A stretch of 64,000 bases of DNA from Schmidtea nova (Eukaryota). The position numbers were made by a program, and so were the translations under genes. This document shows positions 33,044 to 64,000 of this stretch, in pieces. Where the stretch lies: NCBI GenBank assembly GCA_044892505.1, contig CM097882.1, positions 209,870,001 to 209,934,000 on the forward strand, in the 5' to 3' direction. The stretch's first letter is position 1. Each line of letters starts with the position of its first letter. The notes beneath the pieces are model-generated. The model saw only the letters and a program-made list of their open reading frames with translations, was not told where the DNA came from and searched no databases.

Positions 33044-34517
33044 TGTTGGGTCAGCCAAATCGAGCAGCATCTGAAAGATAATACATAAATTAAGAAAATA
33101 AAGCTACTTAAAATAACAACAAAATAAATTACCAGCATAAAAAGTAGAAAATAAGCGGCAACATCTAAGAGAAATAAAGTATTAATCAAAACAAAATAAA
33201 ACTCAAGAACTCACTCATGCGAAGCAGATAAAATCTGAATATGACAGCGCGTGGGCGGCTGTCACCGAAGAGCTAAAACAAAATCAAATAAAAATTAAAT
33301 CATACAAAAAATAAACTTACCGCATGATTAACCAAATAAATCATTGAGTTGAGTTAGGCACCAAAAAGCCGACAACATAAAAAAATGAATCAAACATACA
33401 CACATACTCGATGCTGATTGGCTGACCAATAACACCGGTTGAGTAAAAATACTGAAGTCAAATCAGTATTTGACAATGTCATTTTTACTGAAGGTAAATC
33501 AGTACAACAGTTACTTTTACGGAAGATATTGTAAAACCGAGTTGGAAATAAAAGGTAATTTGGAGTTATGTTATTGATGTGTTTAAACCCTCATAATTTT
33601 TTATAATCATATTAAAATCCATAAGGTTTTCCGGAGGCCTAACAGCCTGACGGATTCTTGGGCCTCTCAGCGCAACACAATCTTTCGGTTGTGAGGTGCC
33701 GATGCGGCGGGACCATAGGTGTTCTAAATATTTAACAAGCGGAAGGGGGAAGTGCACATAGGATATCTAATGCCATCGTAACAACGGTATGGGCGATAGA
33801 AATTGAAGGATGCATCATCTGTCACAACGACATCGAGTGAATGAGTGTACCTAAGAAGTTTGTCAATAGACCAGGGGTATCTAACGTTCGTGAAGTCGAG
33901 TAAAGTAGCAACAGCTTTGTACAGAGGATATGTATCAGGATAGACAACATCAAGTCAGCTAAATTAAGTACTGACGAGGGTAGAGATGTACAACGCATGA
34001 GTCATGTGAGTTCAGGAGCTGAGAGGGTTAGCGTCAGAGGTAAACAATGAATCAACAAGGCATCCCAACATATATACACCTCTCGAAGGGTACGAAGGAT
34101 AGACCCCACGGATATGCCATGATAGTACGATCTATACCCAATTAGTCTGAGTAAGGGGTTGATCATGTTCCCCGGATGATGTGATCCTTGATAGTTAAAA
34201 TTGATGGTTGGAGGTAAAACCTGAGGAATGATTGAGCATGATTGCTGTAAATATGAACTGAAAAATGTCTCGTAGATAATAACATCCAAACAAAATGAAC
34301 GGTCAAGTGATCTATGTAGTTGAAAACAAAATATCATAAACAGCACGATGAATTATGCGTGGCCAACTCACATAAGCAAATTGATAGAGTGAATATATTC
34401 ACCCACAATGATAATAAAATATGACCTACATGGTATCGCAAACATCGGACTAGTTCAACATTGAACCACCGACTGAAGCCTACAGAGTTTCACCCTTAAG
34501 TCGAGTAGGTCGACGGG

Positions 34518-34525
34518 TATAAATA
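34518..34525 (+). promoter_or_regulatory. Candidate TATA box in the LTR (copy near 60679)
   Basis: TATAAATA about 30 nt before an Inr-like ATCACTC; position alone, no functional data. Confidence 0.4.
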
Positions 34526-34579
34526 ATCGCGCTTACCCGACAAATCTATCACTCTAACATAATTCTTGTCTTCAGCCAC

Positions 34580-35215
34580 ATGATAAAGACCGAAGGATAC
34601 CAAACGGAGCTGATCGACTCACGACATATGAAAGTGGAGGATTATGTCATCCGGAGAAAACGACGTACCCGTTCCATCATCCGGCCAAAGAGGAACCCCA
34701 CCATCGAGGGAGAAATGGAAGCCCCCCGCCGAATTAGTGCAATTGCACGTCGACACTTATGCCGATGGATAAGACATCATACGAGTGCAGCCGCCGATAT
34801 TCCGGCTTGTGCCTTCACCATACAACTGCGATGGGAGGGAGACACCGATTGGACCTCCACCACGGATCCTGCCGAGCCAAGGACCGATAGATGGTTCTAT
34901 CAATTCCTCGACGAACAGAAACGACCCCGTTGGATATTGAGTAATGAGATGATGACGGGAAGGGCTCTATATCAATTAGGGTACATGCTGCTAGACAGGC
35001 CTCGGTGTCGCTACACTGAGGAAGTCTTCGCCTACTCCAACGCGCCAGGAAGCGTGTCTTTAGCGCAACACCCCGAGGCCAAGGAGCTTCGCCTCTGGGA
35101 GGTGTTTATCTACAAAGATAAGCTGAGTTGGAACCCAGCCCCAGAAATGTATTGGGAGAATGGAATTCGTCGCGACGAGCATCCTGCCGATCAGGAATTG
35201 AGAGCATCCAGTTGA
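34580..35215 (+). CDS. LTR ORF1, 211 aa, unknown function
   Basis: Intact in both LTRs; probable homolog in LTR of element A. Confidence 0.75.
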   Translation: MIKTEGYQTELIDSRHMKVEDYVIRRKRRTRSIIRPKRNPTIEGEMEAPRRISAIARRHLCRWIRHHTSAAADIPACAFTIQLRWEGDTDWTSTTDPAEPRTDRWFYQFLDEQKRPRWILSNEMMTGRALYQLGYMLLDRPRCRYTEEVFAYSNAPGSVSLAQHPEAKELRLWEVFIYKDKLSWNPAPEMYWENGIRRDEHPADQELRASS

Positions 35216-35403
35216 TCGACACCACCCGAGAAAGAATGATTGTCATAGATATAAAAATATATGTATTTGTGTGAGAACGGTCTTGTTTTGTTTTCGAGTG
35301 TATGAGAATAGCATGATGATAAGGTGGAGTTGTTTCATAACGACAGGATGACCGAAAGATCAGACACATAACATATACTACCATTAATGATATATTTACA
35401 GAC

Positions 35404-35967
35404 ATGACTGAAACCAAGGACAGAGATTTCAAGCAAGAGGCGCGAGAACATAAGGCGCGCTCACGAGTTTTGGAGAATCGGTTAAGGCAGCTGAATGAGG
35501 AGCATCAGCGGATTAAGACGACATGGTTTAACCCAGAGCGGGTTAAGTCCATCCTGCAAGCTAGATACAGGGCGGAACGAACAATCAACGAACAGGCGAG
35601 AGAGGTCGCAGCCCTGAAATTAGAGTTGGCCAATTACTTAAAGGTGTCGACCCGAGACTTCATCACCGAGCAGTTGCGTCCTGTGATCCGGGCAAGCACT
35701 TTTAATCGATGGGTAGACACGATAGTGGTGACTACGAGCACCCAAACGGAAAATGCATCGACCGTAACTACAGCTACTGCAGTGACAGCTACAACTCCTC
35801 AAGGATCGCAAAGAACAAAGAGAAGGAATCGCTTAGGAGCGAAAAAGCGGAGAGAGCGACGTGCATATGCGGATCGCCTAGGAATAGAAATAGACTTGCT
35901 CAGCGGTCTATCTGAACAAGAACTTCTGAATGTAATTAGACCATCGGTGTTATTAAATTGTAAATAA
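35404..35967 (+). CDS. LTR ORF2, 187 aa, coiled coil with Arg-rich motif
   Basis: Intact in both LTRs; homolog in element A; followed by an overlapping AATAAA at 35963. Confidence 0.78.
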   Translation: MTETKDRDFKQEAREHKARSRVLENRLRQLNEEHQRIKTTWFNPERVKSILQARYRAERTINEQAREVAALKLELANYLKVSTRDFITEQLRPVIRASTFNRWVDTIVVTTSTQTENASTVTTATAVTATTPQGSQRTKRRNRLGAKKRRERRAYADRLGIEIDLLSGLSEQELLNVIRPSVLLNCK

Positions 35968-35968
35968 A
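35963..35968 (+). terminator. Candidate poly(A) signal in the LTR (copy near 62124)
   Basis: AATAAA overlapping the ORF2 stop, followed by a GT-rich tract (TTGTCTTGTTTGTTTGTGG). Confidence 0.5.
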
Positions 35969-36359
35969 TGTATTGTAAACGAATGATTTGACTTGTCTTG
36001 TTTGTTTGTGGAATGTTTGAGGATTGAATGTAACTAAAACCCGGATTCATTTAAACTGCAGATATCTAAAAAGTAAATTACCCTATGACAAAAGGAAAGA
36101 GCATAAGTGGGACCGAAAGAAATCCACAAACACCTTCTATCGGTAGTGGTGGACCCGTGAATAAACAAGGGAATAGTAGCCGCAAGGTTGCTCACCTGCC
36201 TTGTCATTTCACAACGTTGACACAGCACCAACATGATGAGTAGTTAGGGATACATCATGGGTGTCAGCGGGGGAATGTTTTTATGTTGGCGAGATCACCC
36301 TAACATATAAAATCACAATGATCTCAGTTGTCAATCTAACCAACACACCAGCATAAATT

Positions 36360-36377
36360 TGGGGGCTCAGCCGGGAT
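36360..36377 (+). promoter_or_regulatory. Primer-binding site of element B (tRNA-Pro type)
   Basis: TGGGGGCTCAGCCGGGAT, 6 nt after the LTR end. Confidence 0.88.
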
Positions 36378-36914: not shown

Positions 36915-37373
36915 ATGGAGAACAAAATGAAAGAAATGCAAACGTTTTTCGAAACAAACAACGAGACAGTGGAGACAATAACGAGAAAGTTAAGACGACT
37001 CGAAGTAGGAGGATATCACGAGCCGACAAACAACACAGAAAGAGCCGAAATGATAATGAGCATAAGCGAGAATAAGAACACAGTGGATACAGCAACACGA
37101 TATCAGTGGTATAGAGAGCGATTAAACAACCCTGAGATGAATATCGAGTGTCACAGGCTAGAACAACAGTTAACAACAAAACACGACGAGTGGACGAGAA
37201 TAACAACAGAACATACGAGACAATATTTGACGTGTTATATCTGTGAAATGAACAAAATACAGATAATGTTGTTGCCATGTGGGCATTTTCGATTCTGTAA
37301 TGAATGTGAAATAAATGAACGATGTCCTATGTGCAACCTTCCCGTATCTGAGAAAGTAACAGTGTACTTGTAA
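36915..37373 (+). CDS. 152-aa protein with C-terminal IAP/MDM2-type C3HC4 RING; putative E3 ligase, no BIR seen
   Basis: CYICEMNKIQIMLLPCGHFRFCNECEINERCPMCNLPVSEKVTVYL*. Confidence 0.85.
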   Translation: MENKMKEMQTFFETNNETVETITRKLRRLEVGGYHEPTNNTERAEMIMSISENKNTVDTATRYQWYRERLNNPEMNIECHRLEQQLTTKHDEWTRITTEHTRQYLTCYICEMNKIQIMLLPCGHFRFCNECEINERCPMCNLPVSEKVTVYL

Positions 37374-38084
37374 TAGAAATAAAGTTTTGAACAAGTGCAG
37401 TTGTTGTTGAAATTATGAGGGTTTAAAAATGATTTGGTAAAAATGACCTAAGTAATTATGAGCTACTTACGAGTAGTCCGTTAAGCACCTATTGGGGGGA
37501 ACCAACTGATCAACTCACCCGAGATGTGTAGAAAGGGATCCAATCGCGGATATTGGAAAGCTCTTGTGATGTGACTGATCACCACATCGTGCATCAGTGG
37601 ACCAATGCGATCTTTTTATATATTTTGGTTGGGGTGAAAGGTAGGGACAACTTAATGAGGTGTAGGCGCGCGCAGAAAAAAACTATAAAAATAGGAGGAT
37701 AAACTGATCAGTAAAGAGAGAGAGAAAGCAATGAAATGAGTAAGATGAATAGCGAAACGTGGTATATGATGAAAGGCACGTAATCAGCTCGCATAAGGTA
37801 AAATCAAGTAGAAAGGTTGACGAATCGATAATAGAATAAAGGGGTATAACAGATGAACCGAGTAAATGGTAAACTCGAGGTTAAAGGAAATCCTTGAAAG
37901 AAAGGAAATGATAAAAGGGGTCCTGGAGAGAAAGGATTTGCCCATAGTTCTTGAAAGATAGAACTTAACAAAACGCGACAATAGATTCTCCGAAGAAGCA
38001 TAAGTGACCAATGAGAGGAACATCTCGAAGCAACACATGCAACCACTGAGAGATGATATTTCGAGTTTTCGTTCGTGAGCATAG

Positions 38085-38633
38085 GTCTCATAGTGAGCAT
38101 AGGTCTCGTCATAAAAATAACATCCTAGTGAGCATAGGTCTCGTCATAAAACACAACACCATAGTGAGCATAGTTCTCGTCCGTAAATATAAATCTCGTA
38201 GTGAGCAGAGTTCTCATTAATAAACACAAGACCAGCGAACATAGTCCTCATCAGTGAGCGTAGTTCTCATTAATAAACATAGTCATCGTAGTGAGCGTAG
38301 TTCTCATCAGGAAACATAATTCCTGTAGTCACCATCAGTGAGCATAGTTCTCATCGGGGAACATAGTCCCCGGAGCAAAGAGTTTCCATCAGTAAGCAAA
38401 ACCCTCATAACAACCATGTTTTGCTAGTGAGCATAGTTCTCCTCAGTGAGCATAGTTCTCGTCAGTGAGCATAGTTCTCGTCATTGAGCATAGTTCTCGT
38501 CATTGAGCATAGTTCTCGTCATTGAGCATAGTTCTCGTTAGTGAGCATAGTTCTCGTCATTGAGCATAGTTCTCGTCATTGAGCATAGTTCTCGTTAGTG
38601 AGCATAGTTCTCAGCTATGAGCATAGTTCTCGT
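38085..38633 (+). repeat. Array of the GAGCATAGTTCTC core: 11 tandem 19-bp copies (38427-38633) plus dispersed upstream copies
   Basis: (G/T)TGAGCATAGTTCTCGTCA, read directly. Confidence 0.95.
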
Positions 38634-38959
38634 TTGAAATAAGATAGTGAGTAAAAAGCCCACGAGAAAGACGACGAAGTGAGGCAGATGAGGACTAAAT
38701 TACGTATAAAACTATCCGGATAGTGAAGATCAACAAGCGATAATGGAGATGAATAAATGATAATGAGGATAAATGATGAATAGTGAAAATGAATAGCGAA
38801 CAATGAGGAATAAGGGTTGAAAGAAACCGAATTAATAATGAGAGAGTTGAAGGTGCGCACCTGGGTATGGATAAACGCGAGTAAAGCTGATTATGTGGCC
38901 TAATGACGTCAAAGTATGCATACAGAGGAGTAGTGAAGTAAAGTGAGTAAGTGAAGGGT

Positions 38960-39422
38960 GCTGAGTGGAAAACCCAGCAGACCATGAGATTCGATGGGAA
39001 TAAAATGAAACCGGTTTGTTAAGACAGGTAAAGTGGTAAAGACGCTAGCTGGAAAACCCAGCAGGTCAATGATAACGATCAGGAAAGATCGAGAGAATAA
39101 AAGTGAGTAATAATAAAGTGGTGAAATTGAGGACGCTGACTGGAAAACCCAGCAGGTCAAAAGTGATGATCATCAGAGTAAAGAGCAGTTAAAAGTCGAC
39201 AGTAAAGAGATAAAGGGTGAATAATAAGAGCGCTGACTGGAAAACCCAGCAGGTTAATGAAACGACAGTCGTGGTCGAGAATAACGAGATAACAGTAAAA
39301 GGTGAGATTAAAAGCGCTGACTGGAAAACCCAGCAGGCTAATGAGATAATGAGTGAAATTGAGAGAAACAGAGTTCGAGATAAAAGGTGAGATTAAAGGC
39401 GCTGACTGGACAGCCCAGCAGG
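38960..39422 (+). repeat. Six spaced copies of GCTGACTGGAAAACCCAGCAGG (period 84-97 bp)
   Basis: Copies start near 38960, 39044, 39135, 39232, 39316 and 39401. Confidence 0.9.
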
Positions 39423-40298
39423 CCAACGAGAGATGTCAGTGGAATCAAAGGTGAGTAGAGATGAGAATTGAAATGAAGTAGTAAACGTAGTATGAATAGG
39501 AAATAAAGCGAATAGCCGAGAAACAGAGTAGTCGACAGATAAGGGGAAATTTGAACTCAGAGCCAGAGAAGCCTGAGAAAAGTAAAGGGGATAATAAGAG
39601 CGCTGAGCGACAAAGTAATTGGGGAACTGGGGAAAAGTAATTGGTGTATTTGATAAAGAATAGATAATTGATGCGACTGCATAGATAATTTAAATAGACT
39701 TAAAATCAAGGGAAATGGGAAAAATGGGGATCTTCATGAATTATGACTACACCCGTGAGAGGGACGAGAAACACGATAACGGGGACGTATCGTGTAAGTG
39801 ATTATTTGTTTTAAGGAAACAAATCAATCAAGCAATTCAAAGCAATCTAGCAGTCAGAGCAATCAAAGGAAACAAATCAAAGAAGAAGCAAAGCAAAAGC
39901 GGAGTAGAAAATCAGTTGAGAATATAAGAAGTTGAGGAATAGACAAAATTGAGGGACGAGAAACAAGATCAGGTATAATACCAATCTTAACGGAAGCAGA
40001 AAGAAAAGCAGCAAAAAGGACAAGAACAGGTAACAAGCCTAAGCAACAAAAGAACAAACAAGTAGAGATCAGCGATAATTCGAGTAATAAAGAGAACCAA
40101 GAAGAAACCCCAGAAGATCTAGAAGTACAAAACGAAGTAGAGACGATAGACAGTGAACTAGTCAGGGAAAACAGAACAAGAAGCGAATCAAGAGATAACG
40201 AAACAGAGAGTAGTGAAGAAGAAGAGTCGAATTCAGAAACAAGTGGTGAACTAGAAGCAAAGAAAACTAGTACAGTATTCCAAGACAGTGGAATCGGG

Positions 40299-41170
40299 AT
40301 GAGTGAACACAGAGAGGATCTGAGAGAAAAATTCAAGGGCGAACCATTCAATGGAGACGCCAGTAGATTGGACACGTTTCTAAAGGAATTTGGCATATTC
40401 GTGGATATATGCGGATGGAGTGCAGAAACGTTGGCAAATCGAATCCCGCTATACTTGAAAGATAGCGCATTGGATCTGTATATTGAAAAGAGATCTGGAA
40501 GTAGTCCACCCAGAACGTGGGAAGCAATCAAGGAGTTCTTCCAACAGACGTTTGGGATAAATAAAGTATTAAACGAAGCGTTCGATGAGTTTTCTGCAAG
40601 AAAACAAAGGAGAAACGAGTCAAATGCGGTGTACGCAAGCGAATTAAGAAAGTTGGCGAAACTGGCATTCAACAGAGGAAGCCCAGTAGATGAAGAATTG
40701 ATGACAGCGTTATTCGTACGAGGTCTCAGGAGACCTGACATCAGAGCACAAGTGGGATGCAAAGGATGTAAAACAGTAGATGAAGCGTTGGAAGCAGCCA
40801 ACCTATTCGAATTGCATATGGCAATGAATGACATGAGAATTACGGCGGTAATGGGAAAAATGACAGAAGATGAAGAACAAGGAAAAAGAAACATGAATCA
40901 AAGTATTCCCCATTCGCAGAGATTGTTCAAAGAACCGCCAGCGAGGAAAAATAATGGATATATCACAGTAAACCCGAATGGAGGAAACAGTTACAATGAC
41001 AGGCAGAATAGGCAATGTCAGACGTGTGGAAAAAACGGACATTGGCAACAAGATTGTTTTCAGAATGTAGCCTGCAAACTGTGTGGACAAAAAGGTCACT
41101 CAGAAAATCGATGTTATGGGAAAACGTGTTACACATGTGGAAAAACCGGACACATGTCAAGAGACTGTAA
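40299..41170 (+). other. gag: Gag: capsid-like domain and three CCHC zinc knuckles
   Basis: FNGDASRLDTFLKEF...W..IKEFF...RKQRRNES..YASEL; CQTCGKNGHWQQDC, CKLCGQKGHSENRC, CYTCGKTGHMSRDC. Confidence 0.92.
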
Positions 41171-44100
41171 TCAACAGAGAAGTTGGTCAAACAGTGGAAA
41201 TAGACCGAATTACGGGAATCGACCAAGCTATGGGAATCAGGGTCAGCAACGGAACAACCCAAACAGCAGTGCAAATGAAGTCAGTATGAAAGAAGCCAAG
41301 TTGAGACAGGAGGTATCCAGATTACACGAGATAATCGAAAGCATGGCAAAAGGAAGCCAACAAGCTGCTCAACCAAAGATAAACATGATCCAGTTAATAG
41401 AAGCTGAGGCTGAAAGAGAAAATAGAGAAAGCCAACAGAAACATAATCAAGAATGGGCTAGAATACGACGAGAAGAAGAACAAGTCAGACAACAACGACT
41501 ACAACAGTTAAAAAAGGGAAATCCAAGGATCAACATGATGCGAGCAAGGATGGAAAAGAAGCAGCAGGATGAGTCAGACGAGTTAGAAGTTAAAGAGAAA
41601 AGAAACGAAGAGCAGAAACAAGAAGAAGTGAATCAGGAAGTAGAAGTCGCAGAGCAGAATCAAAAAGCTGAAGAAGTAGAAAAAGAAACGAATCAAGAAG
41701 CGGAAGTAAGAATCAAACAAAGAGGAATGTTGGTGATCATGCCGAATGATCACGTATGGCGATTCAAATATGATGTAAAAGAAGAAGTAGGAAGACTGTT
41801 CAATAAAGTAAATGAGATGATTCCGGGAGTAACGAAACTACCCAGAGAAGCATTCCTACAAACAGAGGATTTACCGGAAGTGAAGTTAAAGATGACTGAT
41901 ATATGGGAAGATATGGGAGTAACGGAGACAAAAATAAACGTGATGATCATCAGAGAGGTGGAACCGGAGAAAATCCCACCACCAGTGAAACATCAAACTC
42001 GGATCAGTCGAATATTCAAAGGAAAAATAAGACGAAGACGGTTGGAAGAAATAGATGAGTTGGAGAAAAGAATGGGAAAAGCTGAAGTAACAGGAAACGA
42101 GAATGAACTAATACAAGAAGTTAGCAAAAACGAAGCGAGACCAACCGCACATATTGGGATGCTGAGACACCCAAGACAAGAGTTGTCAGATGAAGAAGAC
42201 AACAGCGAAGTTAGCAGTCTGGCAGGAGACATGCTAAAGGAACCGGAAAACGAGGACAAAAAGATGGAAGTAGTTGAGACGATGGAAACAGTGTCAGTAA
42301 CGGAAGACGAAATTCAGAAGCTGATGGATAACGCGTTGGAAGTAATCCATAACGAGGAGTTTATCGACAAGAAACGATACCGAAAGTTTATACGAGCAGT
42401 ATGGCAAATGAAGTACAAAGAGTGGTTACAAGAAAGAGAAGTGAGAGTAATACAAGAGTTCATAGAGAAGTTATTGAAAGAACCACTCAACGAATACGTA
42501 ATACAAATATGGATAAACGAGTGTTCACCGAGAATCTGGATAAGGAACCCAATGACAGACGGAATTTACCGATGGGTTGAGGACAGATTGGGAAGCTCGT
42601 ACAAAGACAAATTCATATACTCAGAAAACGGATTGGTGAGAAAAGGAACGCATATGATAGACACGGGCATCTGGCCAGGAGAAATAACAACGTTATCAAT
42701 ACGCAACACCAAAAAGGAAGAGAACTTACAAGGAATCGTCAAAGAAGCGAATACGTGTTATGAGATGAGAATAAAACCTCAGTTGCTAGAGGCAAAGGAA
42801 AGAATCTTGGCGGAGAATTTGAATACGATAATAGAACAGATCATCCAACAAATCAAGAAACATCGAAAGGAATTGACGAAAAGCGAGTATGAGAATTTGA
42901 AACAGTGTATCGAGAACATACGAGATACGAGTCAAACGAGACATTCAAATTTCAAGACGGACAAGCTAATTGCAAAGATGGGAAAAGAAATGTTTAAACG
43001 AGGTGAGGTATCAGATCTGAAGATTACCGTGAGATTACCAAACGAAGAGACAAAACAAATTGAGGTAATACCAGATAGTAAAGTGGGAGAAATAGTAGAT
43101 GTCATCAATGAGACGATATTACAACGAGAACGAGAAGACGAATTCGAGGATTACATTGCGATAAAATACAAAGAACACCTACTAAACGAACGTGACGAAA
43201 GACGAGCGTATAAAATCGGCATATGGGATAATTATCAGACAATACATGTCATCAGAATGGATGATGTGCAAAGAGCAACACCAAAAGATGAGGAAAGGAG
43301 AAAGAAACGACAAGAGGACGTTATGCGTAAGCTGAGGCAGATAGTAGAAATCTATCGGAACTGGCAGATGAAGCCAGAATTGGAGACAATATTGGGAGAA
43401 TTGGATCTTAACAGACGACGAGTGACGCCAGTAGGGAAACAATGGGATAGTAAAGAGAAATGTTGGAAAGTGAAAAGAGGCGTGTATGAAGAAGATCCGG
43501 AAGTGGAAGACAGATACGAACCGAATACGAAACGGATATGTATGGTAACAAGGAGGTTATTACCAACGGACTTAGACGGACCAGAAACTGCAGTAATATG
43601 GGCAGAATTGGAGAAACAGAAAACGAGTGAATTGATCGAGCTGTTGAGAGGAAATACTCGGGGGAAAAGACAAACAATAAAAGGCTTAGCACAATTCATA
43701 ATCTCAAATGGAGAAGACATAACGAACTTGAGAAAAGTAGCTAAAGCGATAGCAGAATACAAGAGAGTTAATGAGTGGTGTCCAGAGCAACTAGACGATG
43801 TAATAAAAAAGTGGAGAAACAGAGAATTCGCGGAGGAAATGCCACAGAAAATACATTTGAGGATAATGTATCCGAATCAAAGAAAAGAAGAGTTTTGGGT
43901 GATGCTAACAGAGAAAGTGAAAAGTATTAAAGAGAAACTGATGTATGAACTACCATTCCACCTGCAACATCAAGGACGATCGTTGGATAATAGTTTGGAA
44001 ATCTGGCTGACACCAGTACAATTGGACCTAATGAACACGCTAACAGTGGCACAAATAGTGGGTCAACCACTGAAGTTTAAAGAGGAAAAGAAACCGAAAG

Positions 44101-50100: not shown

Positions 50101-53100
50101 TGCCAATACCTGCAGAACCTATGGCAACGATAGCAATGGATGTAGTTGGACCATTGCCAGAAAGTTTAAAAGGAAATCAATATATATTAATAGTCACGGA
50201 CTATCTAACAAAGTTCCCAGAAGCATTCGCAATACCGGATCAAAAAGCGAAAACAGTCGCGAGAATATTGGTGGAAGAAATATGCTGCAGATATGGAACA
50301 CCAAAGAAAATCCTAACGGATCAAGGAACGAATTTCATGAGTGAAATATTGGACGAAGTTACGAATTACTTCAGAATTGCGAAATTACGAACATCCCCAT
50401 ACCATCCACAAACGAACGGTCAAACAGAAAGATTCAATGGAACATTGATACGCATGTTGTCAAATTATGTCAGTAAACATCAAACTGACTGGGATGAGTA
50501 TATAAACCTGTGTTTAATGGCATATAGAATGTCAATACATGCGGCAACAAAGCTAAGTCCATTTCAACTGATGTACGGAAGAGATTGCAACTTACCGATC
50601 GATTTAGAATACCAACCACCATTATCACAGTACATGGAGGTTGACGATTACGTTACAAAGTTCAAAGAAAGAATGCAAGAAATCTGGAAAACAGCGGAAC
50701 TGAACATCAAGTTCTATCAAGAGAGTTACAAGGATCTGCATGATCAGAAAAAGAATGTGAAAGCACATGATTTAAAAGTTGGAGATTGGGTGATAATCGA
50801 GACACCAGAGATAATACCCGGTACGGTCAAGAAACTCCAACGACCAGGCAAAGGGCCATATGAAATAACAACAGTAAACGAAAACAATGTGCGGGTACGA
50901 TTGGTGAACAATCCATTGGTAAGACCAATATACGTGAATGCATGTCGATGCAGGAAAATCCCAAAGACAGCAACTCTATCACCAGAAAAACGGGTAATTA
51001 CAAGATCACAGACGGCGAGAATCAGTATGTTACGAGTACAACAAAAGCCGCAAACAAGTCTAGAAGACAACCGAAGAGAAGCAATAGATAGCAAAGAACT
51101 GGCAAAGAGGACCAGAGAAATTATACCAGAATGGAAATGGTGGTTCGATTTCAATATATTGACAGAAGTTCGAAAGAATGTAATGGAGTATTCGAAGGAT
51201 AGAACAGCACATCCAATAACAAGAACGCTGCTAGAGGAAATCCCTCAAACATTGAACCTACAAGACAAAGACGGTAACACAGCGTTGCACAATGCAATCA
51301 AGCACAGTGGGAACGAAAAAGTGAAAGAGATCGTAGAGATGATACTCGAAGGTGGAGGAGAAATTGACAAAGTGAATTGGGAAGGAATCACTCCACTTAT
51401 GATGATGACAATTCACGGAAGAAACGATGAGATAGTCAAGCTATTCGGAAACACCAGATCAAATTGGATGACAAAGGATAAAGAAGGACGAACATTCTTA
51501 AATCATGCAATTGATAGAGCGAATCACCGAATACTAAAGTATATCACGGAAAACGCCACGTGGGAAATCGATGAACTAACTAGAGGATCGATCATGAAAC
51601 AAGCAATCGGAGTAAGAAACAGTAAAACCTGGAGAATACTGCTAAAGTGGAAACGACCAGAAGGAGATTCGTGGGTCATAGATTGTAATGAAGTGTTCAC
51701 AAGAGGAGAAAATGCGTTACTGAAACATCTACTAGAGGTAACATACGATCCAAAAACACTTGCAGTGTTAATAGCGAGAGATACGTTACGGGTTAGCGAA
51801 AACCCAAGAGAATTCAAGTTGGAAGACAGAAAGAAAGAACTATTCGGATTAATCAGGAAATGGTGTGATAAGCAATGGAATGCGCATATGAGCTTCGAAC
51901 ATTTTTATGACATTCAAAAGCAGCACAAAGAAATAAACAAGAGATATAAAGAGCTGATAGAAGCATTGAAATATGGACATTTCTTCAGACAAGCAGTGTA
52001 CCAAGACCAACGGAGGAAACAGATGCAAACACGAATAAGAAGCAAAGCCGTGTTGTTCAATGCAAAAGCCGATGATCAAGAGAGATTAGACGCAATCGTA
52101 GCAAAAGCACAGGAAAAACTATCGGAATTCAAGGAGAATAAAAACTCGTTGGAAATACTAGGAGCAATTACAGAGAAAGTGCACAGATACGCACAAGGAG
52201 ATTATAACGAAAGTGACATAGAAACGATCAAGAATCAAATGCCAGTGGCATTCCTTTTATCAAAGGATGGGAGATTACCGATACACTGGGCATTACGTCG
52301 AAAGAAAGAAAACGAAGTGCTGGAAATAACGAAAGCAATGATAAAGTGCGAAGCAGATATGAATATGGTTGATGATAACGGAGACACAATAATGATAATC
52401 GCAGCAAGAAAGAAGACGAAATTGAAAGTGCTACACGAGTTATACGAAGCAGGAGCCAAAATCGAAGGGAAAAATGGAAAGAAAAATTCCATCATAGATA
52501 TCGCAATACAGTGGAACAACTTCGAGATGATCAAGTTCATAAAGTCCATCAAGAGACAAGAGGACATAGAATACCTGGCAAATAACGTAAAGAAGTTCAG
52601 TCTGACAGTAATGATACACGACATAGAGAAAACGAGAGCATTACTAACATGGGTGAATCCGATCACCAAAGAACCAGCGCTCAAGATCAATGACCATATG
52701 GAACAGAATCAGAATTGGTGTATCAGAAGCGCGTTATTAAGACACAAAAAGCCAGAGATAGTAGAAGAATTCTTAAAGAGAAGAGATTTGAAGTTCACGA
52801 ACAATCCAAAGGAACCCGAACGAACGGGAAGATGGAAAGACTTGTTCAGAAAATATGTGAATGAATGGGCAAATGCCAAAGAAACGATCAAACAAAGTAG
52901 ACTAAAAGACATAGAACCATCCAAAGATATGGAAATACGGGAATTCGAGTCTAGCACACTCACAGTTCAAGCGTATGAAAGATTGATTGAAGAAATCAAT
53001 GTCGAGGACGACATTTTCAAAGGACCAGGGGGTGGTTACAGAGATTTCGACGACAAAAGCAACAACGAAGAGAACAACGAAGACAATGACAACAAAAGAA

Positions 53101-55175: not shown

Positions 55176-55298
55176 AGGGTGGAATATGAGTGTAAATAAT
55201 AGTGTAAAAACCAATGCATAACCGTATACGTATGGGTATAAATATTATAAAACATAAAAACAGAAAAAAGAGAATGATGTATATAATCTAGAAAAACG

Positions 55299-55649
55299 AT
55301 GAATCAAGAAACCACAGAGATGTCAATGATGACAAGATGGAAAGTGCAATGTGACCTGCTAGCCAGAACAATAAACGAATTACAGAGCCAGTTGACGGCC
55401 AAAACGCAATTATTAACCGAAAGTTATAACTGTAATTTCGAAGCAATGAACAAAATCGAGATTCAACAACTACAGATAAACGAATTACAGAACGAGAATC
55501 GAACATTAAATGAAGTAAACAATTGGCAAGCAGAGGAAATTGACCGATTAACGAGACATGAAGAGGAAGAGATACCGGATAGTTGGACGAGCTGGATTGT
55601 AAATGAGATAGACGTGTATCCAGAGCCGGATTCAACTGAGGATGTATAG
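55299..55649 (+). CDS. 116-aa coiled-coil protein with acidic tail
   Basis: Intact ORF with the same strand and A-rich codon style as the polyprotein; YAG acceptor upstream. Confidence 0.65.
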   Translation: MNQETTEMSMMTRWKVQCDLLARTINELQSQLTAKTQLLTESYNCNFEAMNKIEIQQLQINELQNENRTLNEVNNWQAEEIDRLTRHEEEEIPDSWTSWIVNEIDVYPEPDSTEDV

Positions 55650-55741
55650 TGAATAAGCGGAAAATTGTGTAAATACGTGTAAATAAAGAACCAGAAAAAA
55701 AATCAAAAATATGGGGAAATTGATGTAAATATTGTTGTAGA

Positions 55742-57154
55742 ATGAGAGCAGAAAGTGAAGCAGATTACCAAACGATCGAGATTCTAAGAAGAGAAAATCG
55801 GCAATGGGGAGTAAATGTGACGTGTGTAAAGTGTAAAAATCTACTGTTAAAACCGAGGCAAACGGAATGTGGATGCAGGATGTGCACTAAGTGTATATTG
55901 CAAATAATCAGTGAAAGTGAGACAAGAAAGTGTCCAGAGTGTGACGATAAACTACTAATCAACGAGACTAAACCAGACAAAGCAATACAAAAGGAGATCT
56001 GGAAGATAAAAAAAGAGTGTGTAAACCAACCATGTGAATGGAAAGGACAAATAATCGAGCTAAGACAACATCTGGAGAAATGCGAAAACAAGAAAGCGAT
56101 ATGTGAAAAGTGTCAACAGACGACAACCATCAAGCAGTCGAAAAATCACAAGGATGAGTGCAAAGCAGAGATAATAGAGTGTCAATACTGCGAACAAAGA
56201 GAGACGAGAGAAGTAATCGAAACAGAGCATCTCAACGTAGCAGAAGAGAAAGTGTGCGGAAAATTCCGAGGAATTTGTCCAAGTAATTGCGAAACCGGAG
56301 AAGAGGTGATGTTGAGAGAACATTGGGAACAATGCGAGTCAAGACCAAGAAAGTGCGTATGGAGTAAACAAGGATGTGCAGTAAAGAAAACGAGCAAAGA
56401 GATGAAAGAGCATTTGGAAACAGAAACGGTACAACACGCCGAGATGTTAACAGAAAATTTGAACGGAATGGAACAAGCCATACAGAAACTGGGAAAAGAA
56501 GTTGAATCTCAGAGGATAATGACGGAGTTATTACTGGAAACGAGAGAGCAATTCGAGCTCACCAGAGAGAAAATGATGGAGAAAATCAAAGTCATAGAGA
56601 CGCTAGTAAAGGAGGTAAATGTACGACATCAAATATGGGTGCGAGATGCGGAGGATATCGAGAGTTTACCTGTTGCACCATATATATGGAAAATCAAGAA
56701 TTTCAACGAAAAGTTCGCAGCAGCAAGAGCAGGAAGTCAAGTGTCGGTAACAAGTCCACCATTTTATCTGTGGAAAAATGGATACAAAGTTCGAATGAGA
56801 ATTTATCCAAATGGAGATGGATCAGGAAAGGAAACGCATGTGTCATTATTCTTTGCGTTGTGTAAAGGTGGTTACGACGACATATTAGAATGGCCGCTAG
56901 AGACAAAGGCTATAATGAGAGTGAAAAACTCGAAAGAAACAATAGCGAGAGTATTCAAAATTGATGGTAAGCACGAAGCTTACAAAAGACCAACCACAGA
57001 ATGTTCATTAGCGACTGGAGAACCAAAATTCATACCACACCAAACAATGTGGGAGATGTTGTACGACGACAAGTTATATGTAGAGTTGGAGATCGAAAAG
57101 AAAGCAAGTACAACAGTGATGAACACGAAGTCAACGAAAGGATGGTTAGAGTAG
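55742..57154 (+). CDS. TRAF-like protein (RING - TRAF zinc fingers - coiled coil - MATH), intronless
   Basis: CVKCKNLLLKPRQTECGCRMC..CPEC; CEWKG..L..HLEKC; YIWKIKNF..SPPFY..GYK..RIYPNGDGSGKETHVSLFF..KGGYDDILEWP. Confidence 0.92.
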   Translation: MRAESEADYQTIEILRRENRQWGVNVTCVKCKNLLLKPRQTECGCRMCTKCILQIISESETRKCPECDDKLLINETKPDKAIQKEIWKIKKECVNQPCEWKGQIIELRQHLEKCENKKAICEKCQQTTTIKQSKNHKDECKAEIIECQYCEQRETREVIETEHLNVAEEKVCGKFRGICPSNCETGEEVMLREHWEQCESRPRKCVWSKQGCAVKKTSKEMKEHLETETVQHAEMLTENLNGMEQAIQKLGKEVESQRIMTELLLETREQFELTREKMMEKIKVIETLVKEVNVRHQIWVRDAEDIESLPVAPYIWKIKNFNEKFAAARAGSQVSVTSPPFYLWKNGYKVRMRIYPNGDGSGKETHVSLFFALCKGGYDDILEWPLETKAIMRVKNSKETIARVFKIDGKHEAYKRPTTECSLATGEPKFIPHQTMWEMLYDDKLYVELEIEKKASTTVMNTKSTKGWLE

Positions 57155-57243
57155 TCAGAGTGAACGACCCTGTAAATAAAGTGTAAAAATTGACAACAAC
57201 AATAAACGTATAGCATAACTAGTGTAAATTTGTAAATTACAGA

Positions 57244-58404
57244 ATGGAAAACGCAAATGAACATGTAATCGAAGAGGAAACGAGAAGCGGGATGTCGAAC
57301 GAACGAGAAGCACTAGAAAGAGAAATCGAAAGGAGATGTAAAGTGGAAGTGGAACAAAGAACCAGAGAGTTACACGAAGCGATGACAAACAATTTCTACG
57401 AGAAACTAAAATGCGAAAGACGAATGGAGTTATATCAACTAGAACTCGAGGAAGTGACTAAAGAGATACTACAACTGACCACACAAATAGAGAAGCTAAA
57501 AGGAACGAATTCACGAAGTCGACAGAAGATAGAAGAGACCTATCAGTTGATGAGAAAACAAGCTGAACATTACAAAAATGTGATGAAAACGCGAAGAGAA
57601 GAGAGGGAGAAACAAGAGGAAAAGATGGAGGTAAAAATACTAGCAATCAAGGCTCAAGCGAGACATTGGAAGATGGAGTCGAAACGAGTGTATAAAGAAG
57701 CCAAAGAGATAATCAGAAGGACAGCACACAGCGAAGATTGGAAACTGTATCAAGAGATAGACGAATTGAAAGAGGAATTGGAACAGAGAAAACGACAAGA
57801 ACAGACAAACAAAGAATGGAGTCGAAAACGACAGCGATTTATTCGAGAACAGGCAAAGGAACTAAAGAAAACGCAATGGCAAATACAGATGATAAATGGA
57901 GAAATGCGAGGCATTAGACAGAAAGAGGAAGCGGAAAGACAAAAGTTGATCAGGGAAAAAGAAAGCCTGGAAAGAGATGTAAATGGTTATCAAGGGGTGG
58001 TGACCCAAAAGAAAATGGAGTTGAAAGCAGTGAAGGAAAGACATGCGGAATCAAACCGAGCTTACGAGGAAAACATAACGAATTTGACGAAAGAAAACGA
58101 GGAACTGAAACAGCAGATAATAACCCTGAAAGCAGAGAAAGAAACCATAGAAGTAGAAACCGAACCAACAGAAGTAGAAGCCCTGAAGAGAAAAGTGGAA
58201 GGGATGGAAAGACAAATCGAAACTCTGAACGAACAATCAGACTATATGGAGTATCTGTTAGATGAAGAGATACAAATCTCTCGAACGTATCAAGATGAAA
58301 TTGCAATGTGGAGAAGTAGAGTGGTGTGGTTACCGTTTATACCACCACCACCAATGGAGCTCCAAGATGAAGGGTTCCATGAACCAGAGGAGACGGATGT
58401 GTAA
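57244..58404 (+). CDS. 386-aa long coiled-coil protein ending in ETDV
   Basis: E/K/R/Q-rich heptad pattern; intact ORF. Confidence 0.75.
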   Translation: MENANEHVIEEETRSGMSNEREALEREIERRCKVEVEQRTRELHEAMTNNFYEKLKCERRMELYQLELEEVTKEILQLTTQIEKLKGTNSRSRQKIEETYQLMRKQAEHYKNVMKTRREEREKQEEKMEVKILAIKAQARHWKMESKRVYKEAKEIIRRTAHSEDWKLYQEIDELKEELEQRKRQEQTNKEWSRKRQRFIREQAKELKKTQWQIQMINGEMRGIRQKEEAERQKLIREKESLERDVNGYQGVVTQKKMELKAVKERHAESNRAYEENITNLTKENEELKQQIITLKAEKETIEVETEPTEVEALKRKVEGMERQIETLNEQSDYMEYLLDEEIQISRTYQDEIAMWRSRVVWLPFIPPPPMELQDEGFHEPEETDV

Positions 58405-58477
58405 AAAGAGGCGAAAAATCCGTGTGTAAAAATGTACAAATCGATGTAACCTGTATTAATCAGCAGAATAATCAGAA

Positions 58478-59002
58478 ATGAACTGGCTCAAAACCCTACC
58501 AATCCTAACGATTATGTTAACTGCAATAATCATGAACTATTCAACAACCGAAATCCAAAGAACCCTGTCAAACGAGATATCCCAAGAGATTGAAAAACAA
58601 CTAAACGAAGTCAGAGAAGACCTGAAACAATTAATCCGACAAATGCGAATCAGTCATGATCATCGCAAACCCTTACAAACCCTATTCAATCAAATCGAGA
58701 AGATCCGAGAAATCCATAAAACATTTCAAGATCAACTAAAGCCAATCAAAGGCCAAACCCAAATCGAATCTGAAATCCGAAACAGATGGATCATCGTTGG
58801 AATAGTCACAATGACAATATTGACAATCATCTTGATCATCGTGATCACGTATACCCTACATCGAATCAGAAGCCTCAAACAACAACAAACGATAATGTGT
58901 AGATGTGCCAAAAGAGAAGCAAAAACCCAACAAAGGATGAGAAGCCATCTACGACAAATTCAAGCCCGATACGAAATGCAGTCAACCAGTGAAAGGACCT
59001 GA
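58478..59002 (+). CDS. 174-aa membrane protein (N-terminal hydrophobic segment, coiled coil, TM, coiled coil)
   Basis: LPILTIMLTAIIM and WIIVGIVTMTILTIILIIVITYTL. Confidence 0.7.
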   Translation: MNWLKTLPILTIMLTAIIMNYSTTEIQRTLSNEISQEIEKQLNEVREDLKQLIRQMRISHDHRKPLQTLFNQIEKIREIHKTFQDQLKPIKGQTQIESEIRNRWIIVGIVTMTILTIILIIVITYTLHRIRSLKQQQTIMCRCAKREAKTQQRMRSHLRQIQARYEMQSTSERT

Positions 59003-59204: not shown

Positions 59205-60740
59205 TGTTGGGTCAGCCAAATCGAGCAGCATCTGAAAGATAATACATAAATTAAGAAAATAAAGCTACTTAAAATAACAACAAAATAAATTACCAGCATA
59301 AAAAGTAGAAAATAAGCGGCAACATCTAAGAGAAATAAAGTATTAATCAAAACAAAATAAAACTCAAGAACTCACTCATGCGAAGCAGATAAAATCTGAA
59401 TATGACAGCGCGTGGGCGGCTGTCACCGAAGAGCTAAAACAAAATCAAATAAAAATTAAATCATACAAAAAATAAACTTACCGCATGATTAACCAAATAA
59501 ATCATTGAGTTGAGTTAGGCACCAAAAAGCCGACAACATAAAAAAATGAATCAAACATACACACATACTCGATGCTGATTGGCTGACCAACAACACCGGT
59601 TGAGTATAAATACTGAAGTCAAATCAGTATTTGACAATGTCATTTTTACTGAAGGTAAATCAGTACAACAGTTACTTTTACGGAAGATATTGTAAAACCG
59701 AGTTGGAAATAAAAGGTAATTTGGAGTTATGTTATTGATGTGTTTAAACCCTCATAATTGTTTATAATCATATTAAAATCCATAAGGTTTTCCGGAGGCC
59801 TAACAGCCTGACGGATTCTTGGGCCTCTCAGCGCAACACAATCTTTCGGTTGTGAGGTGCCGATGCGGCGGGACCATAGGTGTTCTAAATATTTAACAAG
59901 CGGAAGGGGGAAGTGCACATAGGATATCTAATGCCATCGTAACAACGGTATGGGCGATAGAAATTGAAGGATGCATCATCTGTCACAACGACATCGAGTG
60001 AATGAGTGTACCTAAGAAGTTTGTCAATAGACCAGGGGTATCTAACGTTCGTGAAGTCGAGTAAAGTAGCAACAGCTTTGTACAGAGGATATGTATCAGG
60101 ATAGACAACATCAAGTCAGCTAAATTAAGTACTGACGAGGGTAGAGATGTACAACGCATGAGTCATGTGAGTTCAGGAGCTGAGAGGGTTAGCGTCAGAG
60201 GTAAACAATGAATCAACAAGGCATCCCAACATATATACACCTCTCGAAGGGTACGAAGGATAGACCCCACGGATATGCCATGATAGTACGATCTATACCC
60301 AATTAGTCTGAGTAAGGGGTTGATCATGTTCCCCGGATGATGTGATCCTTGATAGTTAAAATTGATGGTTGGAGGTAAAACCTGAGGAATGATTGAGCAT
60401 GATTGCTGTAAATATGAACTGAAAAATGTCTCGTAGATAATAACATCCAAACAAAATGAACGGTCAAGTGATCTCTGTAGTTGAAAACAAAATATCATAA
60501 ACAGCACGATGAATTATGCGTGGCCAACTCACATAAGCAAATTGATAGAGTGAATATATTCACCCACAATGATAATAAAATATGACCTACATGGTATCGC
60601 AAACATCGGACTAGTTCAACATTGAACCACCGACTGAAGCCTACAGAGTTTCACCCTTAAGTCGAGTAGGTCGACGGGTATAAATAATCGCGCTTACCCG
60701 ACAAATCTATCACTCTACCATAATTCTTGTCTTCAGCCAC

Positions 60741-61376
60741 ATGATAAAGACCGAAGGATACCAAACGGAGCTGATCGACTCACGACATATGAAAGTGGAG
60801 GATTATGTCATCCGGAGAAAACGACGTACCCGTTCCATCATCCGGCCAAAGAGGAACCCCACCATCGAGGGAGAAATGGAAGCCCCCCGCCGAATTAGTG
60901 CAATTGCACGTCGACACTTACGCCGATGGATAAGACATCATACGAGTGCAGCCGCCGATATTCCGGCTTGTGCCTTCACCATACAACTGCGATGGGAGGG
61001 AGACACCGATTGGACCTCCACCACGGATCCTGCCGAGCCAAGGACCGATAGATGGTTCTATCAATTCCTCGACGAACAGAAACGACCCCGTTGGATATTG
61101 AGTAATGAGATGATGACGGGAAGGGCTCTATATCAATTAGGGTACATGCTGCTAGACAGGCCTCGGTGTCGCTACACTGAGGAAGTCTTCGCCTACTCCA
61201 ACGCGCCAGGAAGCGTGTCTTTAGCGCAACACCCCGAGGCCAAGGAGCTTCGCCTCTGGGAGGTGTTTATCTACAAAGATAAGCTGAGTTGGAACCCAGC
61301 CCCAGAAATGTATTGGGAGAATGGAATTCGTCGCGACGAGCATCCTGCCGATCAGGAATTGAGAGCATCCAGTTGA
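60741..61376 (+). CDS. LTR ORF1, 3' LTR copy
   Basis: One aa difference (C/R) from 34580-35215. Confidence 0.75.
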   Translation: MIKTEGYQTELIDSRHMKVEDYVIRRKRRTRSIIRPKRNPTIEGEMEAPRRISAIARRHLRRWIRHHTSAAADIPACAFTIQLRWEGDTDWTSTTDPAEPRTDRWFYQFLDEQKRPRWILSNEMMTGRALYQLGYMLLDRPRCRYTEEVFAYSNAPGSVSLAQHPEAKELRLWEVFIYKDKLSWNPAPEMYWENGIRRDEHPADQELRASS

Positions 61377-61564
61377 TCGACACCACCCGAGAAAGAATGA
61401 TTGTCATAGATATAAAAATATATGTATTTGTGTGAGAACGGTCTTGTTTTGTTTTCGAGTGTATGAGAATAGCATGATGATAAGGTGGAGTTGTTTCATA
61501 ACGACAGGATGACCGAAAGATCAGACACATAACATATACTACCATTAATGATATATTTACAGAC

Positions 61565-62128
61565 ATGACTGAAACCAAGGACAGAGATTTCAAGCAAGAG
61601 GCGCGAGAACATAAGGCGCGCTCACGAGTTTTGGAGAATCGGTTAAGGCAGCTGAATGAGGAGCATCAGCGGATTAAGACGACATGGTTTAACCCAGAGC
61701 GGGTTAAGTCCATCCTGCAAGCTAGATACAGGGCGGAACGAACAATCAACGAACAGGCGAGAGAGGTCGCAGCCCTGAAATTAGAGTTGGCCAATTACTT
61801 AAAGGTGTCGACCCGAGACTTCATCACCGAGCAGTTGCGTCCTGTGATCCGGGCAAGCACTTTTAATCGATGGGTAGACACGATAGCGGTGACTACGAGC
61901 ACCCAAACGGAAAATGCATCGACCGTAACTACAGCTACTGCAGTGACAGCTACAACTCCTCAAGGATCGCAAAGAACAAAGAGAAGGAATCGCTTAGGAG
62001 CGAAAAAGCGGAGAGAGCGACGTGCATATGCGGATCGCCTAGGAATAGAAATAGACTTGCTCAGCGGTCTATCTGAACAAGAACTTCTGAATGTAATTAG
62101 ACCATCGGTGTTATTAAATTGTAAATAA
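61565..62128 (+). CDS. LTR ORF2, 3' LTR copy
   Basis: One aa difference (V/A) from 35404-35967. Confidence 0.78.
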   Translation: MTETKDRDFKQEAREHKARSRVLENRLRQLNEEHQRIKTTWFNPERVKSILQARYRAERTINEQAREVAALKLELANYLKVSTRDFITEQLRPVIRASTFNRWVDTIAVTTSTQTENASTVTTATAVTATTPQGSQRTKRRNRLGAKKRRERRAYADRLGIEIDLLSGLSEQELLNVIRPSVLLNCK

Positions 62129-64000
62129 ATGTATTGTAAACGAATGATTTGACTTGTCTTGTTTGTTTGTGGAATGTTTGAGGATTGAATGTAACTAAAA
62201 CCCGGATTCATTTAAACTGCAGATATCTAAAAAGTAAATTACCCTATGACAAAAGGAAAGAGCATAAGTGGGACCGAAAGAAATCCACAAACACCTTCTA
62301 TCGGTAGTGGTGGACCCGTGAATAAACAAGGGAATAGTAGCCGCAAGGTTGCTCACCTGCCTTGTCATTTCACAACGTTGACACAGCACCAACATGATGA
62401 GTAGTTAGGGATACATCATGGGTGTCAGCGGGGGAATGTTTTTATGTTGGCGAGATCACCCTAACATATAAAATCACAATGATCTCAGTTGTCAATCTAA
62501 CCAACACACCAGCACTGGTCATTGTTATATACGTAATAAACAGTATATTTAATGTAAGTTTTAATATTTATGTTGTACGAATGTATTTGGAAAGAAGATC
62601 TGTTGAGCCAAGCAGAATCTCCGGTAAAAATCTGTCTTGGGGCAGCTGGGGTGAATGTTGTGTGGAGTATGCAATGGTGTGTCTGCGTTTGGGTGTATGT
62701 TAATGTTTTATTATCAACAAATATTAAAAACAAAATTTTAACCAATAACTTTTTAAAATTTTATTTATTGAAACACAACCAAATAGAAGAATGAATACTC
62801 ACGTGTGTGCCAAAACAATGACGGTCGAATAATAATTGTTACATAATTGTCGAATAATTATTAAGTAATAATAGCAGTACTATGATGGTTGGATAATTGT
62901 TGGATAGCAATTGTTGTACAACGATAGAATGATAATTGCAGGATTATAATCAATAGATTATCGAGATCGTCGTGATTCCTCTAGTCCGTGCCAGTTCTAA
63001 GTTGACCGTTTAGTGTACAACGACGATCATCAATCCGAAGACCAACAACCAAAGCAAAATTCGCCCATCAACCAGTTAAAAAAGTACCATCTCAACACCA
63101 TTTCAAGTTGCCTCAAAACAGCATCAAAACAGCTCAATTCTAAACCAACTGACTTCTTAACTAAGCCCATCATACCCGGTCCTTAGAGCCAATCCTTTTA
63201 CCGAAGGTACGGATCTAATTTGCCGACTTCATGAATCGAGATCGTTAAATTATATTTTGGTTTTATCTTTCGTTTTGTTTTCTTCCACTAAGCAATTTTT
63301 TAAATAATTACTGGACAATAGTTGAATCGAGATTTTTAAATTATTTTTTGGTTTTATTCTCTTCTACTTGGCAATTTCCTAAATAATTTCTTTAGTTGTT
63401 TATTTTTTCCAATCTTTCTTAGCTCTTGAATTTGTAGTTTTTTAAATGTTTCGTTTTTTTAAAATTTCTATATTAATTATCAATTTTTTAATTTTTTTGA
63501 ATTCTCTATATTAAGTCGGCAAGTTAATAAACGACTTCGATCACTAGAACTGGGGGCAGGAGGCGGAAATAATTTGTTTAATAAATAATAAAATAACAGC
63601 AATAACAACAAAAATAACTACATAAAAATATTAATTTGATAACATAAGTTATTAATGTTTCATGTTTTGAGTTGTTACTGTGAGCCCTGGTAGCGTCAAT
63701 GTCATATCGACTGTCAACAACCCACCACGAGGATAAAACCACAGTAATTTGTTTTCGTGTATTGACAATAACCCACAAAATTTTTTTTGGTAACAGTGCT
63801 TACTTTTTGCGGATATCCTCCCATTTGCTACAGTACTACACAACTGATAAAATAGGGTTTTATAGTGTTTACTTGGAAATTTCTAGGAAAAACTAGGAAT
63901 TAGATCAACCAGTATTACCAACTCAATTTGTCAAGCACGATAATTATCAATATTCCGTAATCAATTCATTATGAATTTTACAATTTAAAAATAAGAAATC

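Follow-up and report, generated by a model that had tools for sequence, protein, structure and literature searches.

The window analyzed here is a stretch of 64,000 nucleotides from Schmidtea nova (assembly GCA_044892505.1, contig CM097882.1, positions 209,870,001 to 209,934,000). At 33044-62514 it contains a Burro-type Ty3/gypsy element, whose insertion is recent and intact. Its polyprotein combines Gag, a fusion glycoprotein, Pol, ankyrin repeats and a predicted surface protein with fibronectin type III (FN3) folds. The element likely spreads from cell to cell in enveloped particles, and it likely uses its accessory proteins to dampen cell-death and immune signaling in the host. We give this reading as a whole a probability of roughly 0.72.

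The insertion spans 29,471 bp. It is bounded by two long terminal repeats (LTRs) of 3,310 bp each (33044-36353 and 59205-62514), which run from TG to CA and align with 7 mismatches and no gaps. The target-site duplication (TSD), CTGG, lies at 33040-33043 and 62515-62518 and has no strand; all features of the element itself are on the forward strand. An 18-nt primer-binding site, complementary to the 3' end of a host tRNA-Pro(TGG), starts six bases 3' of the 5' LTR (36360-36377). TG...CA LTRs, a short TSD and a tRNA primer site are hallmarks of Ty3/gypsy elements (Metaviridae), and Pfam finds the Metaviridae order of protease, reverse transcriptase (RT), RNase H and integrase with a Ty3/gypsy-type RT. 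The element is a Ty3/gypsy element and not a retrovirus. Membership in the Retroviridae, as an endogenous retrovirus, was rejected because env belongs to PF24664 and lies 5' of pol, instead of being a class I env after pol.

The coding content consists of one polyprotein of 4,958 amino acids (aa) and seven accessory open reading frames (ORFs): two in each LTR (211 and 187 aa), a RING protein of 152 aa, and four 3' of the polyprotein (116, 470, 386 and 174 aa). A first-pass annotation, made from the letters alone, had described a complete 29.5-kb retroelement with a TSD, 3.3-kb LTRs, a 4,958-aa ORF and seven accessory ORFs, and the sequence bears out each of these points. The same annotation had named a chimeric assembly as a possible refutation. 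This is excluded because the same layout recurs in other copies and many insertions have their own TSDs; the exact junction between LTR and primer-binding site occurs 620 times in the genome (control 0).

To describe these copies, we call the family of the window element family A. We read 21 sites: five of family A and six of family B from the best matches, and ten in order from the junction list (two A, one B, two E, four D and one other). Paired full LTRs are 99.67-100% identical; four sites had no pair inside the range retrieved, and one partial pair is 98.5% identical. The 39 best other matches to the window copy are only 96-97% identical to it. Near-identical LTR pairs together with 96-97% identity between copies indicate many concurrently active lineages.

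Every ORF is under purifying selection. The ratio of nonsynonymous to synonymous divergence (dN/dS), given as the mean over pairs within family A, which are not independent, ranges from 0.03 to 0.32. In the polyprotein it is 0.04 for gag, 0.11 for the ubiquitin-like (Ubl) region, 0.03 for the Bcl-2-like domain, 0.04 for env, 0.03 for RT-RNase H, 0.03 for integrase, 0.16 for the ankyrin repeats and 0.32 for the C-terminal repeats. The accessory ORFs give 0.17 (RING), 0.07 (116 aa), 0.13 (TRAF), 0.13 (386 aa), 0.11 (174 aa), and 0.22 and 0.08 (the two LTR ORFs). Since all values are well below 1, the cargo has been kept by selection among replicating lineages.

The polyprotein is stop-free from 40299 to 55175. 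It begins with Gag (retrotrans_gag and three CCHC knuckles, 40299-41288), two Ubl domains (43041-44072) and a Bcl-2-like helical domain (44661-45134). Env follows at 45186-47108, with a predicted internal signal, a PF24664 fusion-glycoprotein ectodomain and a transmembrane (TM) segment. Downstream lie an aspartic protease (DTG, 47580-47852), a conserved domain where the published layout has a dUTPase-like domain (47916-48218), RT (YIDD) with RNase H (48516-49568), integrase (HHCC, DDE; 49893-50978) and two groups of ankyrin repeats (51216-52568). Pfam recovers zf-CCHC, Monjiviricetes_fusion env (PF24664, E 6e-71), protease, RT, RNase H, integrase and ankyrins in this order, which confirms the envelope and the ankyrins proposed by the first-pass annotation. 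The catalytic motifs are all intact. The domains at the published Ubl, BCL2-like and dUTPase-like places are conserved and their matches are weak: the Ubl domains reach E 0.066, and Pfam returned no dUTPase at the published place.

Env thus lies in frame between gag and pol and is mononegavirus-like. By its family match and by likeness to the eye, it appears to be a class III-type, gB-like glycoprotein. Among named proteins RT matches Ty3/gypsy-type polyproteins at 31-50% identity, and it is 48-57% identical to the RT of env-bearing relatives. In the RT tree the element and 13 Gag-env-pol polyproteins with the same env family form one clade (support 98). In many of these relatives two or three aspartic-protease domains are present and the C-terminus reads x-[ST]-x-V.

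The end of the polyprotein (53230-55175) is predicted to be a second type I membrane protein, with a signal-like stretch, four cysteine-bridged repeats, a TM segment (near 54918-54998) and a short tail. The repeats (53298-53537, 53760-54011, 54060-54299 and 54435-54683) carry an invariant C-W, C and C. We predicted the fold of one repeat from a 32-row alignment. The model is a beta-sandwich (predicted local distance difference test, pLDDT, 80.6) with one strand fewer than canonical FN3, and its top fold matches are nearly all FN3 (best Z 8.3, root-mean-square deviation 3.0, 77 residues aligned). Pfam fn3 matches the repeats at E 0.066, and in an Atlas search of the C-terminal region FN3 leads at 0.84, under the trust level. 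A single-sequence model of the C-terminal 581 aa gave no usable fold (pLDDT 37). We predict that the repeats adopt an FN3 fold. Signal-like and TM segments are found 3' of integrase in 11 of the 13 relatives; one of the others has a signal plus an immunoglobulin (Ig) domain and ends early, and one has neither signal nor TM segment. Pfam detects Ig after integrase in two of the 13. Families A, D and E have one signal-repeats-TM module at the polyprotein end, and family B has two in tandem (ORF up to 5,492 aa). Such a second surface protein, as predicted here, would represent a design new to LTR retroelements.

Env has moved between families independently of its flanks. In each of six B copies compared, third-position identity with family A is 0.79-0.86 over env and 0.41-0.58 in the domains on either side. 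A family-B copy neighbors the element in the window (1-21297, reverse strand); its frame is broken and it extends beyond the left end of the window. Against the element it shows a third-position identity of about 0.84 in env and about 0.5 elsewhere. Synonymous divergence (dS) between A and B is 0.32 in env, versus proportions of synonymous differences of 0.67-0.81 in other domains, which are near or at saturation. Between A and D, and between A and E, env dS is 1.8. Synonymous constraint as the cause of the low A-B value was rejected: within family A, env dS (0.20) is not below that of RT (0.16), and the A-D and A-E values are 1.8. In the env tree, B is nested inside A, and a grouping of B with E is rejected by the approximately unbiased (AU) test (p-AU 9e-8). 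Trees of RT, integrase and the Bcl region place A on a long separate branch and leave B, D and E without a resolved order (AU tests not significant), so that the exchange is carried by distances and nesting. All seven family-B copies have the captured env, and its diversity among them is reduced (dS 0.12). The best reading of these sequences is that family B captured the env tract of family A (45186-47108 in the window element).

Family D, a sister family, segregates two in-frame deletions, with all four combinations present. We typed 34 stretches, sampled by class and not proportionally. Four have env and pol; seven have pol and share an in-frame deletion of the Ubl-Bcl-env region; 14 have env and a common in-frame deletion that begins 3' of the protease and runs through integrase; five have both deletions; and four are truncated or otherwise deleted. 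Both deletion types occur with young LTRs and TSDs. In env-less copies the LTRs are 99.6-99.96% identical, and a TSD is present in two of three checked, the third lying within a microsatellite. All 20 of 20 family-D sites without an RT match are pol-less. A junction pattern found at 79 sites, versus 17 D-type RT matches, also matches pol-bearing copies and hence is not a count of pol-less copies. These numbers suggest that pol-less copies are the majority of family D. In gag and env trees the deletion types are intermingled and pol-less copies are not a clade, which points to co-packaging and recombination. The dN/dS of env in pol-less copies is 0.065 (shared variants, 13 rows), a low value that may have been imported by recombination, since these copies are not a clade. 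Even pol-less copies retain the cargo.

Part of this cargo may relate to host signaling pathways. The 152-aa protein (36915-37373) has an IAP-type RING that matches the RINGs of cIAP and XIAP (E 3e-6), and Pfam found no BIR domain in the element. The 470-aa protein (55742-57154) is a full-length TRAF with RING, zinc fingers, coiled coil and MATH; its alignment with animal TRAF2 covers 91-94% of the protein at 25-26% identity. Both identifications agree with the first-pass annotation. Its image of a large-DNA-virus-style arsenal holds as an analogy only: the best matches of TRAF and RING are animal proteins, and the cargo looks host-derived rather than taken from DNA viruses.

The 386-aa coiled-coil protein (57244-58404) ends in D-E-G-F-x-E followed by E-[TS]-x-V and the stop codon, in 16 of 16 rows drawn from five variants. 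The chance of the first motif is about 0.002 per ORF. The second fits the class I PDZ consensus. DDGFVD and DEGYSE act as constitutive beta-TrCP degrons (available text of PMC9606124). The tail thus has conserved beta-TrCP-degron-like and PDZ-like motifs, and the protein is possibly a degron decoy or a short-lived scaffold. The remaining ORFs are a 116-aa coiled-coil protein (55299-55649) and a 174-aa protein with a predicted signal and TM segment (58478-59002). In the LTR, ORF1 (211 aa, 34580-35215) has no Pfam family and an acceptor-like YAG before its ATG, and ORF2 (187 aa, 35404-35967) has a coiled coil and a basic stretch; the 3' LTR holds copies of both (60741-61376 and 61565-62128). Both are homologous across families (hhalign 88% for ORF1 and 99% for ORF2). 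Between family-A copies the dS of the LTR ORFs (window 34580-35967 and copies) is 0.9-1.2, versus 0.15-0.24 internally, a sign of LTR swapping. One family-B copy (2192-6492 of its stretch) has a different 3' cassette without TRAF, made up of a 515-aa coiled-coil ORF whose tail is of the same degron/PDZ-like kind, a 191-aa ORF and two signal-plus-TM ORFs; this is either a cassette exchange or a further family.

The accessory genes share a signature at their starts. An acceptor-like YAG lies within 8 nt before 7 of 7 accessory starts, whereas 151 of the 640 remaining ATGs have one (p 4e-5), and none precedes the start of the polyprotein. The same holds for 16 of 20 accessory starts in three other families and for 3 of 4 in a variant cassette; for two ORFs the start was taken as the downstream methionine that aligns with the others. 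In the 3' cassette (55176-58477), the spacers of 73-123 nt contain, besides the YAG, UGUAHAUA and UGUA motifs. UGUAHAUA occurs six times in 579 nt of 3' spacers versus a shuffled mean of 0.12, and four to eight times in other families; AATAAA is not enriched in these spacers. UGUAHAUA corresponds to the Pumilio element and UGUA to the CFIm site. The accessory ORFs might be expressed from subgenomic RNAs spliced onto the acceptors ahead of each ATG. Splicing would proceed either in cis from a donor in the leader, where donor-like sites are present, or by spliced-leader trans-splicing as in flatworm operons, to which the cis route is a rival. Flatworm operon spacing peaks near 100 bp (available text of PMC8629364), and flatworm operon acceptors read UUNYAG (available text of PMC12582326).

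These parts suggest how the element may work. The polyprotein would be threaded twice through the membrane of the endoplasmic reticulum. Signal peptidase would release the FN3 protein and the ectodomain of env, and cleavage by the element's protease would occur at recurring x-I-x-M/V-type sites between the cytosolic domains. Initially, Gag and Pol would be tethered to the membrane, which would favor budding. The FN3 protein could be an attachment factor or a receptor decoy. TRAF, the IAP-type RING, the Bcl-2-like domain and the degron/PDZ tail may interfere with TNF/NF-kB, ubiquitin and apoptosis pathways. Particles would package the RNA of different copies, so that copies could recombine, as in the env swap, and variants lacking env or pol could be complemented.

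Several observations weigh against this reading. The Bcl-2-like domain proposed by the first-pass annotation matches Bcl-xL weakly, in the BH2 region at an E of about 1; Pfam and a single-sequence PDB search found no Bcl-2, a representatives search returned two ankyrin proteins only, and an Atlas search gave no usable match. The Ubl domains named alongside it are similarly weak. The Z of 8.3 for the FN3 model is about what a common beta-sandwich would reach, and the best Foldseek match of this model has an E of 0.01. In hhalign, the alignment of the repeats with the relatives' ectodomain segments has a probability of 1.4% (score 14.4 versus 12.6 for the best of 20 shuffles) and does not support homology. 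Repeats 1 and 2 are separated by a further hydrophobic stretch (aa 4466), which makes the topology uncertain. When env passed to family B, the FN3 protein did not go with it, an observation that speaks against a tight and obligate pairing of the two. Env-less copies, with young LTRs, make up 7 of the 11 pol-bearing family-D copies. Such recent insertions show that env is dispensable in cis and count against a strict reinfection model; env-less spread occurs, by complementation or inside cells. Finally, homology and motifs are what assign the cargo its putative function.

The element could be a purely intracellular retrotransposon, with env and the FN3 protein serving only as assembly anchors or as superinfection or immune modulators, so that no particle leaves the cell. 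The recent transposition of env-less family-D copies agrees with this, and a one-ORF design holds env in frame whether it is used or not. However, the env ectodomain is as constrained as RT (0.04 versus 0.03), and the presence of the captured env in all seven family-B copies at low diversity is sweep-like; we regard an intracellular life as unlikely. Alternatively, the element may be a virus transmitted horizontally between animals, for example by cannibalism or through wounds, and the genome copies its endogenous record. An intact class III-type env, a second surface protein and diverse young insertions 3-4% apart would fit such a virus. The high copy number and the deletion derivatives are instead consistent with spread as a genome resident. 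The only sequencing runs found to contain this DNA come from one study of one organism, with no RNA run among those listed. We consider horizontal transmission quite improbable. Only size speaks for the idea that the cargo is hitch-hiking host sequence of no benefit, or the giant an assembly chimera. Identical layouts in many insertions with their own TSDs, dN/dS well below 1 in every accessory ORF within and between families, and cargo kept by pol-less copies make this extremely improbable. Enveloped cell-to-cell spread of a genome-resident element is the reading we prefer. The enveloped, provirus-like agent of the first-pass annotation survives in this form, with an env dN/dS of 0.04; it is not a retrovirus, and it can do without env in cis.

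The kind of element is known. Burro elements are over 30 kb long with a 4,873-aa ORF that contains Gag, Ubl, BCL2-like, env between gag and pol, dUTPase-like, ankyrin, MATH and BIR domains, and integrated proviruses that meddle with apoptosis and ubiquitination have already been proposed for them (PMC6431247, section 7). Our element resembles the giant planarian Gypsy elements Burro/GYPSM1 in its length of about 30 kb, its single ORF (about 4,900-5,100 aa in these elements), three-CCHC Gag, env between gag and pol, ankyrins, MATH/TRAF and tandem repeats, and by weak matches in putative Ubl and BCL2-like domains. With multi-kb LTRs, an ORF near 5,000 aa, ankyrins and a MATH/TRAF gene, we place it in the Burro-like group. 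We do not assign it to Burro1 proper, since the polyprotein contains neither MATH nor BIR up to E 0.05. Its TRAF is a full-length, separate downstream ORF, whereas the MATH domain of Burro1 is inside the polyprotein and that of D. tigrina upstream. The first-pass guess of a Burro family or relative agrees with this. Its claim of novelty fares less well for the core idea, as BCL2, MATH/TRAF, ankyrin, Ubl and env are in the published section. That section does not mention the FN3 membrane protein, the cassette with its acceptors, the tail motifs, the exchange of env or the complementary deletions. In the literature searched we found no description of the second membrane protein, of selection on all ORFs, env transfer, acceptors, tail motif or family-D deletions; Grohme 2018 and Repbase reports may cover some of these. 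The element is ordinary for its group in outline, and the added anatomy and population signals are undescribed as far as the literature was searched.

Complex retroviruses have LTR-encoded or spliced accessory genes (HIV nef/Vpu, MMTV sag), and epsilonretrovirus env contains FN3. The element is similar in its LTR accessory ORFs, its putative degron mimic and the predicted FN3 in a surface protein (one fold match of the C-terminal region is to walleye virus env, E 0.04), but it has Ty3/gypsy pol, a class III-type instead of a class I env, and a single polyprotein. Flatworm GAG-ENV-POL errantiviruses also place an HSV/gB-type env between gag and pol, and by eye our env resembles six Smed errantivirus env rows, number 5 most; in the available part of that source, the Smed entries span 14.5-18 kb, and the main text mentions no fibronectin, immunoglobulin, accessory or ankyrin and does not treat accessory genes (PMC13524379). 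As in bovine ERVK[2-1-LTR], trans-mobilized defective elements would outnumber competent ones; the bovine D-type has no functional genes, while in family D the reading frame, Gag, protease and accessory genes persist, and env and pol are divided among variants (available text of PMC10924933).

The biology of these elements is almost unstudied. With signals of selection on env and all cargo, of an env sweep across families and of deletions that complement each other, the provirus hypothesis in the literature can be put to the test. The hundreds of TRAF, IAP-RING and degron-mimic genes carried by such elements are relevant to studies of apoptosis, immunity and PIWI silencing in flatworms that regenerate. 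RNA interference against smedwi-2 derepresses BURRO1 (available text of PMC8532177), and a planarian TRAF expansion has been reported (available text of PMC6109357). A bolder synthesis, which we hold to be doubtful, would make Burro-type elements genome-resident, two-glycoprotein enveloped viruses. They would combine a class III fusogen with a clade-wide Ig/FN3 attachment protein at the polyprotein end and express a spliced-leader operon under Pumilio-type control. Fusogens would be traded between families, and one family would be splitting into complementing env-only and pol-only genomes, a step to a multipartite retroelement; part of the planarian TRAF expansion might be element-borne.

The leader of the element carries tandem repeats with units of 19 nt and about 90 nt (38064-39431), and an Rfam scan of the window gave 0 matches. 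Beyond the left end of the window, the family-B copy has a 14,376-bp Polinton/Maverick-like insertion in the end of its polyprotein; the insertion has terminal inverted repeats of about 690 bp, large ORFs and an A32-like ATPase. A similar ATPase ORF lies within another copy. Between the two Burro-type copies, at 23900-32800, lie fragments of another Ty3/gypsy element, arranged as inverted arms (86-97%), together with an ORF for a DDE_1 transposase (30113-30622). Genome-wide, the 18-nt primer site occurs 2,940 times. A tandem array of tRNA-Pro(TGG) genes with a 308-bp period lies near 459.6 Mb (G000:C1), with 900 pattern matches in the genome. Some copies are inserted in long ATT or AT microsatellites, and four family-B RT matches with equal scores, about 33 kb apart at 590.85-590.95 Mb (G000:C1), possibly form a tandem array.

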